64,000 bases of DNA, taken from NCBI GenBank assembly GCA_010093995.1, contig ML992508.1, forward strand, positions 220,506 to 284,505, written 5' to 3'. This DNA is from Elsinoe ampelina (lineage: Eukaryota). The notes under the pieces are model-generated. The model ran no database searches. It worked only from the letters and a program-made list of their open reading frames with translations, and was not told the origin of the DNA. Positions 6,845 through 46,536 of this stretch are shown here, in pieces (position 1 is the first letter of the stretch; each line of letters starts with the position of its first letter). Both the position numbers and the translations under genes were made by a program.

Positions 6845-8246
6845 ATGTCGTCGCCAATTGCACTCTTCCAAGGCAGTTATGTCACCCAAAACAATCTCAT
6901 GGCAACAGGCATAGCCATGATTGTGGTTACAAGTCTGGTCGTGGCGACGCGGATGGCGCTAACGCTGTTCCAACACAAGTCGCTGAAATGGGATGACGGC
7001 TGGCTTCTTGCTGGCTACATTTTCTACATGGGCATGGTTATCATGTATCTGGTCAAAGCCGAACCGATATTTCATTTCTGGGGTTTCATTGACGGCACGA
7101 GAGGTCCTTACGCGACCATCATGCTGGACGATGTCACCATGCGACGAGTCTCCTTCTCCGCCAATCTGCTCTTCTACTCCGCATTGTGGAGCGTCAAGTT
7201 CTCATTATTGGCATTCTACAAGCAGCTCATGGCCAGATTGAAGGCTTATATCAGGGCATGGTGGGTGGTCTTGACGCTCACAGCCATCGTGAGTCCTCCG
7301 AATACGTTGAATCAAAACGTGCACTGATGGTGATAGTTCTACTTCACGGCCATCTTCATCTCATTGTTCAGCTGCTCCCTCCCGCAGAATCAGATGAAGT
7401 CGGGAGGCTGTCAACGACCGCGCGACTTCCAGGGTGTCGCTGCCGCCTTGTGGTTCGGCTATGCTGTTGACGTCGTCACTGATCTTGCGAGTATGCCAAT
7501 TTGAGGACGGTCACTACCAGGTACTGACCAGCTCCAGTCATGCTCCTCCCGCTGGGGCTTATCCGAAAAGCGCAGATGCCATTGAGGCAAAAGTTTAGCA
7601 TTGGCTTTGTCATCTGCCTTGTCGCTGTTTGTATCACAGTCGCAACCATTCGAGTCATCGAGCTCGGTCGCACCATCACACGATACACGCAACCTAGCGC
7701 CACCTGGCTGGCATTGTGGGGTACCATTGAAGCATCGCTCGGTAGATCCACATCAACCCTTACCTCTTTGTCAGTCGTCTAACAAGTATTCTAGCTGTCA
7801 TTATTGGGAGCTCACCAGGTCTCTATCGCGGCGGCAAGTATGCCCATAAGAGCTATCTCTCCTCCCGCTCTCGCTCTTCGAATCCCTACCCGCACTCAGA
7901 CTCTCCGATGGTCGAAGCTGGCCGCTACCGTCATGTCGACATGGCTCCATACGTCGCGGCCAAGCGTACTACCATGCGAGCCGAGCACAATGCGTCACAT
8001 TCAGGCAGTCCTGCCAACACGGACTCTCGCTTCTCCAACGACTCAACTACCAGTCAAGACGGATTCGCTAAGCGGGTCTACGATGATGCTGCTATCGCTG
8101 TTCACAAGACGCTAAGTGTCAAAAGTCGGAATCGTGACAGTGATAGCATAAGAGATTATCCAGATCCGACATTGCCACTACCAGTAGATTGGGAGGATCC
8201 GAGGTATATTGGATATTCCAGTCCGACAGCGAACAGATATGGATGA
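6845..8246 (+). CDS. PTH11-like integral membrane protein (fungal rhodopsin-like domain), multi-exon
   Basis: TM helices with R...WDDGWL, LWSVKFSLLAFY, DVVTDL-(intron)-MLLPL, W..IEASLAVIIG; introns near 7289, 7491 and 7742; S/R-rich cytosolic tail. Confidence 0.85.
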
Positions 8247-19722: not shown

Positions 19723-22131
19723 TCAGCGCTTGGTCATCTTCAACAAAGGCTGTATCCTCTGCTTCCTGCTTAGTCCCACCCTATATATCGTCACGCCCTT
19801 CTTGATAGGGGAGTGCGGCTGCTTCTCCTTGCATGCTGCTGCCGTCCTTGCAGCCGCAATTGTTCCGTTCTCCTTTCCCGTGCCCACGTCGCTCATCTTC
19901 TGGACTTCTTCATCCCTATCCGCCTCTGCCTCTTTCGCGGCGTCCATCGAGGCGAACAAGTCCTCCTCTTCTTCCGCTGGTGCCACAGTCAATTTCTCCT
20001 GCTGAACATCTGGACTCTCATCCGTGACCTCCTCCTGCGTCTCTTGGACCTCTTGGACTTGGCTCTTCCTAGGACGACCTCTTCCTCTCTTGGCTGGTGT
20101 CGTCTTTGGTTGCTTCTTGGTCGCTTCTTGTGGTGGCTCCTCTTCGTCAGGAACAGGGACTGGCGCGTTCTGCATCACCACATCTTTCCGTCCGATCTCA
20201 ATCGGCTTCAGCTCGGGCTCGGGCTCAGGCGCAGGTTGCTTCCTAGGCCTCCCCCTCTTCTTTCTCGTTTCTTGTTGTTGCTTGAGGCTAGTAGGCTCAG
20301 ACATCTTGATATCGTCCTCTTCGTCTTGACCACGTAGACCCACGTGATCCTCAAAGATGGTTGTGTGACTCCTTCTGTTCTTCGTCCTGCGCAGTGAGGC
20401 AATAGAGGCAGGAGGTGGCATCGAATTCGGTGTAGGCGTGGGTGCCGACGCCTGAGAAGCCGCAGCAGGAGAGGCTGTAGATAGTATCGGAGGAGTCACA
20501 GTACCTTTGGCTGCAGGCGTGGTGCTTGGTCGCTCAACGACGGGCATGCCGACTTCTTGCCCCAGAACATTCGTCGACTTATCTTGACTAGGCGCCCCGG
20601 CAGCCATCGCATCTTCTTCTGTGTACTGTTCAGGAATGCTCTCTTTAACCCGGGACGGACTGCTTTGTGACTGTGAAGCTCTACGACCACTGTCCTTACG
20701 AGTCTTCTTCGACCCCTTAGCCTTAGGCTGTGTCGTAACTGCTGGTCCGACATCATTCATGGGTACGTCCTGCAGAACCTCATCCGTATGGTTCGCCGCC
20801 GTACTGGCTTTGGTACCGGACGAGTCTTCTTCTCTGGCTTCCTTCGCCCGGCGAGCAATCTCAGCTTCAATCTGCAGCTGCTCATCGGCATCATGGTTCA
20901 ATTGGCTGTCGGCGTTGCCGACAGCGCCCGCAGTCTTGGTCCGTTTGCTTTTCTGCTTTTTCGCTAGCTTCTCTGGTGGAACAGACCAGTCTGTTGGCGT
21001 GTACTCAATCGCAGCCGACCTGGACCGACTGGGCTTTGCTTTGTACTGCTCCAGTGGGACCGCTGCAGAAGTGTCGGTTTCCGTTGTCTCGCTGGGACGA
21101 GGAGTGGTAGACTCTTGGTAGTGTACGATAGACTCCACACTGATTTGTCGCGTCCTCGATCGCTGAGCTGGTGTCTTCTCAGGTGCAGGAATGCTAAGCT
21201 CATCGAGGCTGACTTGACTACTACTCATGTCTGTGCCGTGAGCAGGAGTGACCTGCGCTGAAGCTGTGCGTTGCGAAGCTTTTGCTGATTTGCTGCTCTT
21301 CGCCGATCGTGATGATTGCGTTCTCTTTTTCGAGCCAGTGGATGGAGTCTGCGTGTTCCTGATGGGTTCTGCAGACCACGGGATAGAGCCACTACTATTG
21401 CTGCTCACGTGCTCTTCGCGATGGGTCCCGTGTCCCTTGTCAACATCTCTACTGGCAACGATCGTGTCCTCCTCTTGCTCATACACACCAGGGACAGCAT
21501 TTCTCAATGCCTCCTCCACCATGAATTGCTGCTCGCCTGTCGCGAATTTGATAGTCGCATCGGGCATCTCTTGCTCACCATCGTCGCCCATATCTCCACT
21601 AGAGGGCAGCATGAGGACGTTCTCTCTTGCAGCTTGTGTAGCGAGGCTCTTAGCGCCCTCCAAAGCCTCCACAGGGTCCTCATTGTTCATCATGCCATCT
21701 TGATTGTAGGTCCCGTGGTAGGAAGCTTGAATATGTCCAATTGACGCGTCGCTGTGTCTCGTGCTCTGACTCCTAGTGCTCTCCTTGAATCTTTTCCTCG
21801 GGCTCTCAGCTATTTCTCCAGCTGTCTGCCTCCTCTTCTTGCTCTTCGCCTTGTCGGCTGCTCCATTGTAGCTGAAAGTCGACTCGATGTCGAATAGATC
21901 CGCGCCCGCCATACCGTAGGACATTTTGATCAGTGGCGCATTCGCGTCCTTTGCTTCGGTGATTTGGTCCAAATTGCAATTGAAGTGTGTGGTCGCGTCC
22001 GGCTGCGATAGCTGCGCTCCATGTCCTAAGAGGCTGTCTAGATCTTCGTCCAGGTGCACTCCAGACCCATTGACATCAAGAAAGAGCTCGTCGCTTGAAC
22101 CCTCTTCTGAATCGAAGACGAGCCGCGGCAT
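19723..22131 (-). CDS. AT-hook-containing, largely disordered nuclear protein
   Basis: KKRGRPRK and KRGRGRPRK AT hooks; C-terminal YRVGLSRKQRIQPLLK; start inferred at MPRLVFDSEE. Confidence 0.8.
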   Translation of the reverse strand: MPRLVFDSEEGSSDELFLDVNGSGVHLDEDLDSLLGHGAQLSQPDATTHFNCNLDQITEAKDANAPLIKMSYGMAGADLFDIESTFSYNGAADKAKSKKRRQTAGEIAESPRKRFKESTRSQSTRHSDASIGHIQASYHGTYNQDGMMNNEDPVEALEGAKSLATQAARENVLMLPSSGDMGDDGEQEMPDATIKFATGEQQFMVEEALRNAVPGVYEQEEDTIVASRDVDKGHGTHREEHVSSNSSGSIPWSAEPIRNTQTPSTGSKKRTQSSRSAKSSKSAKASQRTASAQVTPAHGTDMSSSQVSLDELSIPAPEKTPAQRSRTRQISVESIVHYQESTTPRPSETTETDTSAAVPLEQYKAKPSRSRSAAIEYTPTDWSVPPEKLAKKQKSKRTKTAGAVGNADSQLNHDADEQLQIEAEIARRAKEAREEDSSGTKASTAANHTDEVLQDVPMNDVGPAVTTQPKAKGSKKTRKDSGRRASQSQSSPSRVKESIPEQYTEEDAMAAGAPSQDKSTNVLGQEVGMPVVERPSTTPAAKGTVTPPILSTASPAAASQASAPTPTPNSMPPPASIASLRRTKNRRSHTTIFEDHVGLRGQDEEDDIKMSEPTSLKQQQETRKKRGRPRKQPAPEPEPELKPIEIGRKDVVMQNAPVPVPDEEEPPQEATKKQPKTTPAKRGRGRPRKSQVQEVQETQEEVTDESPDVQQEKLTVAPAEEEEDLFASMDAAKEAEADRDEEVQKMSDVGTGKENGTIAAARTAAACKEKQPHSPIKKGVTIYRVGLSRKQRIQPLLKMTKR

Positions 22132-22350
22132 TGCATCGCCGCTTCGGAGTGTGTGGAGTGATCGACAGGCAGGCGTGTTGAGTGTTTGCAACTTCGACGC
22201 GCGAAGTGGAAAATCGAGACGGAAAGTCACGTGAGCAATCTTCGCTGCCGTTCAGCAAACTGAAATGGAACGCTGGTCAATTGCCATGTTGTCCGCCTGC
22301 CTACTTGTGTATGTCAAGGTCTTCCTCGACAGTAGGTGCACAATTAAATG

Positions 22351-22451
22351 GTGCATTTTAGCGTCCTCCTCTCTCCTAAGTGTAATTAAGAGTCCTCCCG
22401 TCTCCTAGATGAGTCTCGGAGCTCTCCTCTCCCGGGTGCATTTATGAAGTC
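22351..22451 (+). repeat. Degenerate ~27-29 bp tandem repeats upstream of the tRNA
   Basis: gtgcattttagcgtcctcctctctcctaa / gtgtaattaagagtcctcccgtctcctag / atgagtctcggagctctcctctcccgg / gtgcatttatgaagtc. Confidence 0.5.
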
Positions 22452-22501
22452 ATCTTTGTATAGTTCGAATCATTGGCCTGGGCTTCCGAGCCGTAATTAA
22501 A

Positions 22502-22657
22502 GGAGTTGTAGCTCATCTGGGAGAGCGCCAGAGTAAGTCTTGCGCATCCAAAATACTAGATTCCGGCTGATCCCCCTATCGCTGAAGAAACACTTCGGTT
22601 ATACACATACAATGTATGGCAATCTGGAGGTAGAGTGTTCGATCCACTCCAACTTCA
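22502..22657 (+). tRNA. tRNA-Phe(GAA) gene with two interruptions: exons 22502-22532, 22582-22587, 22622-22657
   Basis: Acceptor GGAGTTG/CAACTTC+A73; D arm GCTC/GAGC with G18G19G20; anticodon stem CCAGA/TCTGG; loop CTGAAG|A; T arm GAGTG-TTCGATC-CACTC; TTTTT terminator at 22662-22666. The joined exons closely resemble the yeast tRNA-Phe core GAGAGCGCCAGACTGAAGATCTGGAGGT. Confidence 0.9.
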
Positions 22658-22661
22658 TGCG

Positions 22662-22666
22662 TTTTT
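22662..22666 (+). terminator. RNA polymerase III T-run terminator
   Basis: TTTTT 5 nt after the tRNA discriminator base. Confidence 0.7.
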
Positions 22667-22712
22667 GTTGCATTGCAATCAATTAGGATACATCGCGGGC
22701 ATTGCGAAATGA

Positions 22713-22778
22713 TACCTCTAGCTCACTGAGGCTGGGAGAGTGTGGTACCCCAGCTCACTGAGGTCGGGAGAGAGTGTG
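22713..22778 (+). repeat. Two ~33-bp imperfect direct repeats downstream of the tRNA
   Basis: tacctctagctcactgaggctgggagagtgtg / taccccagctcactgaggtcgggagagagtgtg. Confidence 0.75.
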
Positions 22779-23028
22779 ACTGAGGTATTCAGGTTCCGAG
22801 CAACCTTGAAACACGAGCCAAGCTACACACGAAGTAACGTTTGTGATGGGAAACGATCAAAGAAATGATGCACTTGACGAGGTTCATGAAGCTGATTGGC
22901 GAGACCAAGGTAAGAGAACACATGGAGTGCATCGTTTTTATCATCGACTTGATTCAATATGCATAGCGATCATTGCACGAAGTTGACATAGCGCAATGGT
23001 GAATTATTCATCATTGTACGTCAGTAGT

Positions 23029-25250
23029 GTCGTGGCAAAAATCCCCGCAAGTTGAACTCGCCGAATTCTCTCCATCTTTAGTAGATGTTATATGCTCGTC
23101 GAGGACACGAGAAATCCGGTAACAATACTGAGCAGTACATGAGTGTCGCCAGCAGAGTTATAAACACTTTATAAGTAAGGATTATTAGGACACATTATCC
23201 TGCCGGCATGTTACAGAGTCAACCTTTGTAGTCCCTATTATGTTAGTAATATAAGTTAAACACACCTAGGAGAGTCTGCATGATATCTAGTATATCTGTC
23301 TAGCATCTCTATAGAACTAGAAGGTAGCAATCAGGGTCTTTGCCAGCTTATAGTAACACTACACTTATTGCTCTTCGGTCGAAATTTTCGAAGGTATAGT
23401 TAACCTAATAGCTTTAATGCCTAAACCCTACAGCTCGAAGATTCTAAATTATCTCCTTAGACAAAAAGGCATCCTGTTAGAATACCTACATCGTAGGCTC
23501 CTTAAAATCTATAGAGATAACGGAGTACATGCTTAGGTTACTAGAAGAGTAAGCCTTACTTTATAGTAATACTATCTTAAAATGCTAAATTAGAAACTCT
23601 AGGCTCGTAGATGCTACATAATATAACAATCTTACTGTCGGCTATTTATACACAACTAAGGCTTACTTTTAGAAATCCTAGCGCATAGGCCTACTAAGCT
23701 ATACTAGCTTTACTACTTTTTGTATATAGACAATACATCTTTATAGGCTATGCTTAATTCTTATTGTATAAAGCTGTAATTAAGGTAGTAAATAGCTATA
23801 CTATTGAATTAAAGGTGTAAGTGCTTAATAGTTAGTGCTTTTACTATTACGTTGCTATAGCTAGTATACTCTATCTAGCATCTCCTCTACTAGCTTATCT
23901 ATCTAATTCTATAGTATATCCTTCTATTCTTCTTAAATAAAGCGTTTTAGCTCTTTATTAGTTGTTAGTGTACGTTGCTTAATATGCTACTTAACTCTCC
24001 GCTAGCAGTTCTTAATAATAGTTATATTAGGTAATTTAGTACAATTAGCGTAATATTAGAAGCTTAGTAGTAAGTCTTTATATAGCTTAACTAGATTATA
24101 GGTTAATTGAGTGCTATAAGCGCTATTATTGTCTTCTTCTAGTATAAAGGCTTCCTTCTTAAACTATACATTGTTCTAGTACTTCTTAATATAAGGGATA
24201 AAGATGCTATAAAGATAGGTAAACTAATTAAGGTTGCCGCTAATAGTAAGCACTAAGGGTTGCTTCTTATAGTAGTCGTGTTTATAACTCGCCTTGTCTT
24301 TATACCGGTGCTTATAGCTAGGCTATAAGTCGTTTAATAGGCGTAACTTAGCTTCCTCTATCTTAAGAATAGCCCCTAAAGGCTAAGGGTTAACATCGAC
24401 AAGGTCGGCCTCTAGTATAGCCTTTTGCTTGTTAATTGTCTTTAGTAGTAGCAAATTAGAGTAGAATACAAGCTCTAACTTAAAGCCGTAGCCGACTATC
24501 CCCTAGATATGTACTATTATCTTTATAGTCTTCTTTTTAAACTAGATCTTGTTTAGGTTGTTCCTCTAGCCTTAGCGGCGATAGATTATAGTAGTAGCTC
24601 TTAAGTTATAGTAAAAATAAGACTTATTAGTAAATCTAACGCTTTTCTAGAAGTCTAAGTCTTTATAGCGGTAGATTTTAGCCTACGCTTTATAAGCTGC
24701 TATATTCTTAGCCTTTAGCTAGCCCTTCTATTTAGCCTTAAACTTAAAGATACTATAGCCTTATATAGCTCTATATAGTGTCTAAGGGTTAACATCTAGA
24801 TAGAACAAGTCTACTAGCTACTAGTAAGTCTTTTTAGCGTTACTAAAGCTACTATCGACAAAGCGCTAGATATAATAGAGTAGACAGTTGTTAATAATAG
24901 AGGTTCTTCTAGGCCACTTAGATCTAGGCCTCTAAGCTAATCTAGTAAGTATCTACTATATAGAACGCTTAGGAACCTTTATTATATATAATATCTAGCT
25001 TATAGGGAATTTGGTGTATCTAGGTAGTAGTAGTGCTACTCTAAGGGCGTAACAGCTAGCGCGGATTAGAGTAGGCTACTTGTGCCCCTTAGTATATTTC
25101 TAATTAGCCTCCGGAGTTAGCGTGCGTAAATTGGAATAAGGTAATTCGGCCATGGCGAGTTCATTAGGAAAAAAATCAAAGCAATTGGAGCAAAATTAGT
25201 AGTGTTATAAAGGTGTGCAATTTGGTGGTGGAATCTTGGTGTGCCACGAC
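23029..25250 (-). mobile_element. RIP-inactivated Tc1/mariner-superfamily DNA transposon, ~2.2 kb
   Basis: Reversing G>A and C>T changes on the minus strand gives WKSVRFTDESHF (~24650-24615), VHIWGMVGYGFKSELVFY (~24515-24460), LEEDNDSAHGT (D at 24131-24133) and SPDMTIIENCW (E at 24011-24013). Inverted ends: GTCGTGGCA 23029-23037 / TGCCACGAC 25242-25250 followed by TA, plus an inner block TGAACTCGCC / GGCGAGTTCA. Confidence 0.88.
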
Positions 25251-45208: not shown

Positions 45209-46536
45209 ATGCACACTCCACTTTACCTTCTTGCGGCCTTTGCAGTTGATGCCGTGACAGCGTCAAGCCTCCCACTTGAAGCACGGCAATCACTCGGATG
45301 CAATCTCAAGCAGCTGAAAGTCTTGCAGACCAGCTTGCAAGACCCGCTGCTGTTCTGCATGTGGTGGCGTGGAAAGTCTGTAACTCCTCTCCTTCATAAT
45401 GAGAGATAGCTGACCCTGGTGTAGTAAGAGTAATCAGACACCATTCACATCGCTGAGCAAGGCACAAGTCGACAGTACCTGCAAATGTATCATCGCTGTG
45501 CCGACTTTGGGTGTCTCGTATATGGCATCTGCTCAAGTCTCCAACCCGCAGGTACAAGGCTTGTCGGACCTTCAGAACTCGGTTGCCGCTCCGTTGTCTT
45601 TCTGTAAGGTGTGGAGTAAGATGTGAGTCGTCTTCTAGAGCGCTTGGAAGAACGGGTTTGACCCTTTGTAGCTCAAAGAAGGATGCTTCGCCGTTCCGCA
45701 ACCTTAGTAGCATCGCATTGAGCCGTGTGTGCACTGCTATCTTGAAGAATCCCAAGCTGGTTGCCCCGAAAGCAAACGGTTCGAGCAGCTCATCACTGGT
45801 CACTTCGACGAAGTCATCATCGTCCAAAGTGACAATTCAGACTACCACTTCTTCCACTTCCACCACCACCACCATCACAACAGCACCAACAGACACAACG
45901 ACGAGCACATTGCCAACAAGCACCCCAAACACCAGTCCAATCTCTGCGGCTCAACTCATCAATGACCCCCTCTTTACCGCCGAGGTCCGAAACCAGACCG
46001 ATCCCAATCAGCCGTTCTTACAAGACGGCTACCATTGGGTAGGCGTTAACTACAAGACCTCGTCCGTCCAGGTCGCAAATGTCTCCAAGCCGCTGCACGC
46101 ACTCAGCCTCGACCTCAAGAAAAACAGTCTGGAGAACCTTGTCATGCTATACGAGGAGTGGCCCACTACCGAGGAAGGATACTACCTCGTCGTTGTCTAC
46201 TACGACGCCTGGTGCAATGTAGCCGAGGGCTGCTTCGTCGGGCTGATAGTGCCAGAAGACCCCAACGAGACGCGATACTTTGGGGAATTCAATAGCAACC
46301 CAATCACACCATCAACCCAGATGACAGGTTACCCCAGGAGGCAGGCGGAGATCTTCACCAGGAACACAGATCGTACGCATATTGGGTTGATGTTGGAGAC
46401 TAGCTTTTTCAACAACTACACGGGGCTTGGTGCTCAGGTCAACTTTTATAGCGCGGCGATGTATGGGCCTGTGGCGACGAAGGAGGAGGCGATGAGGATT
46501 CAGGAGATATATGGGCCGACTAGCTCTGCGGAATGA
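45209..46536 (+). CDS. Secreted protein with two Cys-containing repeats, an S/T-rich linker and an unknown C-terminal domain; 3 exons
   Basis: Signal peptide MHTPLYLLAAFAVDAVTA; 49-nt introns at 45376-45424 and 45623-45671 give a continuous frame to 46536. Confidence 0.75.

Follow-up and report, generated by a model that had tools for sequence, protein, structure and literature searches.

The locus described here lies in a 64,000-nt stretch of the Elsinoe ampelina genome (contig ML992508.1 of assembly GCA_010093995.1, positions 220,506 to 284,505 of the forward strand), hereafter the window, whose fungal-type genes are those for WSC, DUF3405, VPS11, tubulin cofactor D and DDHD. On the plus strand, we read directly from the sequence a tRNA-Phe(GAA) gene that is interrupted twice, by a 49-nt insert (I1) and a 34-nt insert (I2), the positions of which are given in Table 1. 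An earlier note, made from the letters of the window alone, had proposed this two-insert anatomy, and all of its coordinates were borne out by our analysis: a perfect 73-nt tRNA-Phe(GAA) was obtained only when both inserts were removed. The same note had placed the anticodon on a micro-exon of six nucleotides, CTGAAG, which proved correct as well, and the micro-exon is kept in the three contigs described below. The closest long open frame (842 aa, without Pfam family) occupies 19723-22251 on the minus strand, divergent to the tRNA gene and about 250 nt away from it, and appeared to be expressed in one of the sequencing runs compared here (run X3), which yielded a 2,836-nt contig ending at 22250.

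Table 1. Features of the tRNA-Phe(GAA) locus in window coordinates. X3, X4 and X7 are sequencing runs whose contigs are described in the text.
Feature	Position and length	Strand	Basis
tRNA-Phe(GAA) gene	22502-22657 (156 nt)	+	read from window sequence
Exon 1: acceptor 5' strand, D arm, anticodon-stem 5' strand CCAGA	22502-22532, 31 nt	+	sequence, ARAGORN, folding
Intron I1 (GTAAGT...CTATCG, i.e. GT..CG), tRNA positions 31/32	22533-22581, 49 nt	+	sequence and run contigs
Micro-exon CTGAAG, tRNA positions 32-37, anticodon GAA included	22582-22587	+	sequence, ARAGORN; present in X3, X4 and X7 contigs
Intron I2, canonical 37/38	22588-22621, 34 nt	+	sequence, folding; present in X3, X4 and X7 contigs
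Exon 3: A38, anticodon-stem 3' strand, variable loop, T arm, acceptor 3' strand, discriminator A	22622-22657, 36 nt	+	
A-box-like TAGCTCATCTGG in D arm, exon 1	22509-22520	+	
B-box-like GTTCGATCC in T arm, exon 3	22637-22645	+	
T5 run, Pol III terminator-like, 4 nt 3' of discriminator	22662-22666	+	sequence; contigs read through
5' leader in X3 contig	22483-22501	+	contig alignment; true start not readable from contigs
3' extension in the same contigs	22658-22940 (to 22853 in X3, 22920 in X7, 22940 in X4)	+	contig alignment
Second T5 run	22935-22939	+	sequence

The tRNA body appeared to be intact in every feature that we checked, namely the 7-bp acceptor stem, the D, anticodon and T stems, the 7-nt CTGAAGA loop with U33, and the discriminator A. 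In the yeast system, the phenylalanine identity set comprises G20, G34, A35, A36 and A73; in the gene studied here, G20 (in the D loop ATCTGGGA), the anticodon GAA and the discriminator A22657 can all be read from the sequence. That the A box, the B box, the stems and the terminator are undamaged, as the earlier note had stated, was confirmed by sequence, ARAGORN and folding, and the distance between the two boxes is stretched to about 115 nt by the inserts. Neither I1 nor I2 contains a run of four or more T, and Pol III could therefore transcribe through both of them. I2 is a canonical intron at 37/38, again in agreement with what had been noted before: its CTTCGG (22593-22598) pairs with the anticodon, and its third-last base, G22619, can pair with C32. 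In its site, its pairing with the anticodon and its G at position -3, I2 does not differ from what we take to be the arrangement of the intron in the pre-tRNA-Phe of Saccharomyces cerevisiae.

Two further details of the gene deserve mention. Position 15 of the tRNA (22516) is T and position 48 (22632) is A, so that the two are complementary in an orientation reversed against the usual purine-15/pyrimidine-48 pair; this combination could tag the product of this gene in tRNA sequencing. Furthermore, GTAAGT (22533-22538), when followed by A38 (22622), mimics a 7-nt anticodon loop with T33 and the anticodon AAG. If I1 stayed in the transcript, ruler-type cutting at 37/38 would yield a Phe-bodied tRNA with a Leu anticodon, a form that is absent from the RNA contigs.

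We folded the transcript with and without the inserts. The intact 156-nt RNA reached a minimum energy of -42.4 kcal/mol (z = -1.21 against shuffles) in a structure that was not a cloverleaf, and forcing the cloverleaf on it cost about 6 kcal/mol. Once I1 was removed, the unconstrained minimum-energy fold was a perfect cloverleaf, with I2 extending from its anticodon stem, and the 73-mer without both inserts likewise folded, unconstrained, into a perfect cloverleaf. In the unspliced RNA, the GUAAGU at the start of I1 was predicted to be unpaired (mean 0.83), while the micro-exon was predicted to be paired with the CUUCGG of I2 (mean probability of being unpaired, 0.06). The AG at 22586-22587, which sits inside the helix between the anticodon and I2, was also predicted to be paired, with probabilities of being unpaired of 0.06-0.09.

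Standard gene finders did not recognise the gene. Across the 64-kb window ARAGORN reported no gene, missing the intact one, and Rfam gave no match at the gathering score; relaxing the Rfam search to E values up to 10 in 22300-23300 yielded two chance-level matches (E of 1.8 and 3.5), neither of which was a tRNA. Since both tools overlooked this gene altogether, fungal tRNA gene counts and the lists of 'missing' isoacceptors may be wrong wherever such introns occur. Gene finding with and without the inserts, which the earlier note had recommended, turned out as expected from the proposed anatomy when ARAGORN was run without its intron search: of the four constructs, only that without I1 and I2 was called, and the call was tRNA-Phe(gaa) of 73 nt. 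With the intron search switched on, the construct from which I2 had been deleted was called tRNA-Phe(gaa) i(32,49), the intact gene was called tRNA-Ala(ggc) i(34,83) rather than Phe, and the construct lacking I1 only was also called Ala(ggc), with the 34-nt intron put elsewhere in the loop. Intron placement by ARAGORN, taken alone, is thus no support for the Phe reading. We favour this reading because the body is Phe-like (G20, A73 and a short variable loop, judged by the general rules of tRNA identity), the CTGAAGA loop is perfect and the RNA data agree with it. The program was also very lenient in a deletion scan, in which 270 of 744 arbitrary deletions led to some tRNA call, and it is for this reason unable to prove that the insert borders are unique. 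The tRNAscan-SE 2.0 paper, in its passages on non-canonical introns, handles these as an archaeal matter (PMC8450103).

Ten sequencing runs matched the locus, of which two are DNA runs and a possible source of the window sequence, four carry the same organism label and are guessed to be RNA, and four, of uncertain kind, carry a second organism label. None of them is on record as RNA, and the RNA status of the runs X3, X4 and X7 is a guess, taken together with their patchy cover. We aligned the contigs of these three runs, which stem from three studies and two organism labels, and those of the DNA run X1 to 22100-23100. In X1, one unbroken contig crosses the whole stretch, with the 49 nt of I1 kept and no joint. 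In X3, X4 and X7, i.e., in all three non-source runs examined, the contigs join 22532 directly to 22582, which is the very CCAGA|CTGAAG junction that the earlier note had predicted for a spliced product. The joint skips 49 nt (GT..CG), no letter at it fits both borders, and there is no mismatched letter on either side. Each run supplied one short joined contig, of 329 nt (X3), 383 nt (X4) and 360 nt (X7), the first of which covers 22483-22532 and then 22582-22853. All three have lost I1 exactly, retain CTGAAG and the entire I2, and extend about 280 nt beyond the first T5 terminator. The agreement between the junction predicted from structure and the junction observed in the contigs far exceeds what chance would give.

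The joined contigs have a leader and a trailer that are unique to this locus, and the X1 contig is single and unbranched; the joined molecules therefore derive from this locus. RNA-like behaviour was visible in X3, in which one contig ends at 22250, where the long open frame of the neighbour ends, and 22270-22473 is uncovered; the depth of the tRNA contig in this run was 151, against 46 for the neighbour. These data are contigs and not reads, from which the strand, the true ends, the level and rare forms are not readable, and the DNA and RNA samples may stem from different strains. No contig of X3, X4 or X7 lies in 22542-22575, a gap that is uninformative on unspliced molecules as contigs drop rare variants. 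Template switching by reverse transcriptase was considered as the cause of the joint and rejected, as the borders share no letter and the same joint recurred in three studies. A GT-AG intron spanning 22533-22587 was rejected as well, for the contigs keep CTGAAG. We conclude that I1 is very probably removed at the RNA level, and that it is most likely a real intron, taken out before I2. The order of events put forward earlier, the spliceosome first and the tRNA splicing endonuclease (SEN) second, stands in so far as the retention of I2 in contigs lacking I1 fits a removal of I1 first; the two agents named in it are a matter of inference.

The RNA contigs may be products of read-through by Pol III or of transcription by Pol II, and both are equally possible. 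The longest of them (X4) stops at 22940, one base past the second T5 run, which would fit read-through by Pol III, contigs being unable to show ends. The 3' extension contains no Rfam family (E up to 10) and no plus-strand ORF of at least 60 aa. A 25-nt direct repeat of 88% identity (22720-22744 and 22752-22776) lies inside it, without Rfam match. A short ATG-started frame at 22866-22915 meets GTAAGA at 22910, and the X4 contig runs unspliced through to 22940. Downstream of the extension, we saw no sign of a coding gene until about 25800. The gap between the tRNA gene and its neighbour holds a 28-nt pyrimidine-rich direct repeat of 79% identity (22351-22378 and 22380-22407), about 100 nt upstream of the gene, and a B-box-like GTTCGAATC at 22463-22471, 31 nt upstream of the tRNA start, around which no tRNA-like stems were seen by eye.

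tRNA introns and spliceosomal introns are, by textbook knowledge, unrelated classes with separate machineries and separate substrates. I1 shares with U2-type spliceosomal introns (i) the 5' splice site GTAAGT (consensus GTRAGT), (ii) a branch motif of the type CTRAY, (iii) its length, and (iv) its exact removal in the contigs of runs guessed to be RNA. The branch-like GCTGAT is located at 22566-22571 (CTGAT at 22567-22571), placing A22570 11 nt before the end of I1. The 3' end of I1 is TCG and not YAG, and the closest AGs are found at 22558-22559 and 22586-22587. The spliceosomal look ascribed to I1 in the earlier note is accordingly upheld for the GTAAGT start, the GCTGAT branch motif and the size, and not for the 3' end, where the CG in place of AG had been overlooked. 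As to size, the comparison drawn there with mRNA introns of the window was accurate: the 49 nt of I1 compare with 48, 49 and 49 nt in three examples, whose 3' ends are CAG or TAG and in which TTGAC or CTGAC motifs occur. A search of the window for introns that restore a reading frame gave 36 candidates, 17 of which show a YTRAY motif at a distance of 8-28 nt from their end; these candidates are crude, not RNA-verified and contain evident false positives, and they serve as a rough calibration only. The best of them are 41-55 nt long, a range that includes I1, and the GCTGAT of I1 resembles their branch motifs (GCTGAC in 45376-45424, CTGAT in 7289-7336).

Introns with GT-CG boundaries are on record elsewhere. 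Eight are annotated in Drosophila, all eight of them supported by RNA-Seq (PMC4528330, table 3), 19 (0.02%) are listed for the fungus Ganoderma lingzhi (PMC11590231, table 1), and a 27-nt intron of this kind is described in a passage on US11 of HSV-1 (PMC10675037).

We also asked whether the borders of I1 resemble those cut by other enzymes. No bulge-helix-bulge was found at them in 27 registers (bulge offsets of 1-3, helix of 3-5 bp), the best central helix having 2/3, 3/5 or 2/4 pairs and the outer helices being weak. I1 lies at 31/32 and not at the canonical 37/38 site of the tRNA endonuclease, whereas I2 has both the canonical position and the pair between position 32 and the third-last intron base. 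By eye, borders of the Ire1/HAC1 type are absent from I1, the 5' cut of which follows an A (CCAGA|GTAAGT); the consensus of that system, given in part in PMC12530127, has both cuts after a G at position 3 of the loop in stem-loops with 7-nt loops. Scans for repeats and for promoters and terminators near the gene gave no explanation for the insert, and inspection of the borders of I1 by eye showed no target-site duplication. The best reading of these signals is that I1 would work like a spliceosomal intron without being an ordinary member of that class. If I1 is removed as proposed, the spliceosome is the probable agent, albeit by a modest measure of confidence.

A second contig of X1 (record 2, 31,974 nt) aligns to 22497-22538, a span that takes in the last five leader bases, the complete exon 1 and the opening six bases of I1; the alignment contains 6 differences in 42 letters, and the sequence on either side of it is unrelated. 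This contig may bear another tRNA gene, interrupted at the same position by an intron with the same start. We further scanned a metagenome collection, mostly prokaryotic, for the last 14 bases of exon 1 followed by GTNNGT and obtained 19 loci, none of which (0/19) has an upstream tRNA 5' half; as intron-bearing tRNAs, these loci were rejected as chance hits.

Taken together, we propose an intact nuclear tRNA-Phe(GAA) gene with two introns of different kinds, of which the spliceosome would remove I1, and the tRNA splicing endonuclease and ligase would then remove I2; we regard this full scheme as evenly poised between right and wrong. The precursor would begin at or before 22483, and the first T5 run would often be read through. 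With I1 lost first, A31 would be joined to C32 and the cloverleaf could form. I1 would most likely be taken by the spliceosome through the unpaired GUAAGU and the CUGAU branch site, with the 3' end following 11 nt on. The rare CG would serve as this 3' end, the sole nearby AG, 6 nt downstream, being locked in the helix of the micro-exon and I2. The CG site lies at the base of that helix and at the usual distance from the branch, and it may be used precisely because the downstream AG is held within the anticodon-I2 helix. The product would be an ordinary intron-containing pre-tRNA-Phe, from which the tRNA splicing endonuclease and ligase would remove I2 at 37/38. Four elements of this scheme are inferred: that the spliceosome is the agent, which polymerase transcribes the gene, that the endonuclease acts later, and that a working tRNA results. 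Two findings count against the spliceosomal reading. The CG 3' end departs from a defining feature of ordinary spliceosomal introns, and the contigs, running about 280 nt past the T5, differ from standard pre-tRNAs and may represent dead-end or Pol II transcripts.

It is attractive to speculate further that both machineries are obligatory for this gene. The spliceosome would act on a Pol III transcript at an AG-independent GT-CG site aided by the anticodon-intron helix, the endonuclease would follow, and I1 would be a member of a class of spliceosomal tRNA introns that is old, has been maintained in this lineage and escapes standard finders. The second locus, which appears to combine a tRNA 5' half with the same six intron-start bases, would point to such a multi-locus class in the fungal lineage. 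We hold this extended version only tentatively, and it may well prove to go too far.

Alternatively, I1 could be a real intron at the RNA level and yet be removed by a protein endonuclease and an RNA ligase; the nuclease could be the tRNA splicing endonuclease, working non-canonically, or a different one that is specific for RNA structure, and GTAAGT would then be a relic or a coincidence. Such a route would account for the CG at the 3' border and for the fact that both cuts restore the tRNA exactly, and ectopic tRNA introns are removed in this way in the nucleomorph of Guillardia and in Cyanidioschyzon merolae, according to passages of two papers (PMC4090602; PMC3728597). We nevertheless consider it unlikely, because neither a bulge-helix-bulge nor a relaxed variant of it occurs at the borders of I1 (2/3 or 3/5 pairs at best), because the 5' border misfits the Ire1-type loop consensus by eye, and because GTAAGT (by itself 1 in 4096 at a fixed place), the distance of the CTRAY motif and the size of an mRNA intron would together make an unlikely coincidence. 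Position 31/32 is, moreover, beyond the reach of the ruler mechanism of the eukaryotic tRNA endonuclease. A different doubt concerns the fate of the RNA: I1 might be spliced from a transcript that is non-productive, or is a non-coding RNA made by Pol II, with tRNA-Phe supplied by other, uninterrupted genes. We judge this improbable. No damage was seen in any of the tRNA features examined, the pairing of I2 with the anticodon and its G at -3 are preserved, and neither intron has a T run of four or more, all of which speaks against a gene without use. The contigs begin 19 nt or more upstream of the gene, pass through the T5 to 22853-22940 with I2 still in place, and the A and B boxes are about 115 nt apart, as would suit that possibility; size-selected libraries capture long precursors, though, and seeing only these says little.

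The main way in which the finding could fail is strain polymorphism. If the 49 nt were private to the sequenced strain and the strains behind the RNA runs lacked them, there would be no splicing, and the gene of the window would be a disrupted pseudogene. The DNA sample (S1) and the RNA samples (S2, S3 and S6) may differ in strain, one run carries another organism label, and the kinds of the runs (DNA or RNA) are guesses, all of which leave room for this explanation. We give it only a small chance: over about 320-380 nt of mostly intergenic flank, the contigs of all three runs show no mismatch, which implies the same or nearly the same strain, and three studies would all have to have used insert-free strains. 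A random insert would not be expected to combine GTAAGT, a branch motif at intron distance and the length of an intron, and a mobile intron-like element would be spliced anyway. Readings with a single intron have a negligible chance of being right. One of them assumes an 83-nt intron at 22539-22621, with GTAAGTA as the loop and AAG as the anticodon, and ARAGORN does call a 73-nt 'Leu(aag)' when 22539-22587 and I2 are deleted; the other, tRNA-Ala(ggc) with an 83-nt intron at 34, is what the program with its intron search (-i) returned for the intact gene, i(34,83). Both are contradicted by the RNA contigs, which lack GTAAGT and keep CTGAAG, and the short variable loop and the lack of a G3:U70 pair mark the body as Phe-like by the rules of tRNA identity. 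The calls themselves come from a program that accepted 270 of 744 arbitrary deletions.

If the scheme with the spliceosome acting on I1 is true, tRNA precursors are among the possible substrates of the spliceosome, not even the anticodon arm is exempt from intron gain, and the supply of a tRNA can be tied to the activity of the spliceosome. The gene would also offer a natural test case for how a 3' splice site is chosen without AG, a choice in which RNA structure appears to be the guide. In this last respect, I1 is comparable with the GT-CG introns of mRNAs in Drosophila, Ganoderma lingzhi and US11 of HSV-1 mentioned above, which have the same terminal dinucleotides and junctions supported by RNA but belong to Pol II mRNAs. 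In the passages on Drosophila, all eight such introns (8/8) have a similar alternative splice nearby, whereas here use of the alternative AG would cost the tRNA its anticodon, and the contigs show no such use.

The statement of the earlier note that tRNA introns of eukaryotes are normally single and located at 37/38 holds as a rule with exceptions. In the nucleomorph of Guillardia theta, ectopic tRNA introns of 3-24 nt occur, two-intron tRNA-Phe-GAA genes included (passages of PMC4090602), and Cyanidioschyzon merolae has ectopic or multiple tRNA introns, the removal of which depends on the bulge-helix-bulge (passages of PMC4090602 and PMC3728597). By term count, the word spliceosome is never used in the review PMC4090602. 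The gene described here resembles those of Guillardia and C. merolae in having more than one intron, with one outside the canonical site but within the anticodon arm, and in the removal at the RNA level. It differs from them in that I1 is 49 nt long, carries spliceosomal signals and lacks a bulge-helix-bulge, and in that the gene belongs to the ordinary nuclear genome of a fungus.

A search of the main texts of openly available papers brought up no report of a spliceosomal intron in any tRNA gene. mRNA-type introns are known from the genes for U6, U2, U5 and U1 snRNA of fungi and from the rRNA genes of some fungi, and the host genes named in the relevant passages of a 2018 review on U6 are those for snRNA and rRNA, with no tRNA among them (PMC5855946). 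As the same passages point out, the introns of fungal U6 demonstrate that an RNA made by Pol III can be spliced by the spliceosome. The tRNA-Phe(GAA) gene is like these genes in that a short intron with an mRNA-type 5' site and a branch motif interrupts a gene for a small, structured and abundant non-coding RNA. It is unlike them in that the host is a tRNA, the intron ends in CG, and an intron of the endonuclease type lies 6 nt away on the same RNA. With I1 and I2 separated by only these 6 nt, a single 73-nt RNA would have to serve as substrate for two splicing systems.
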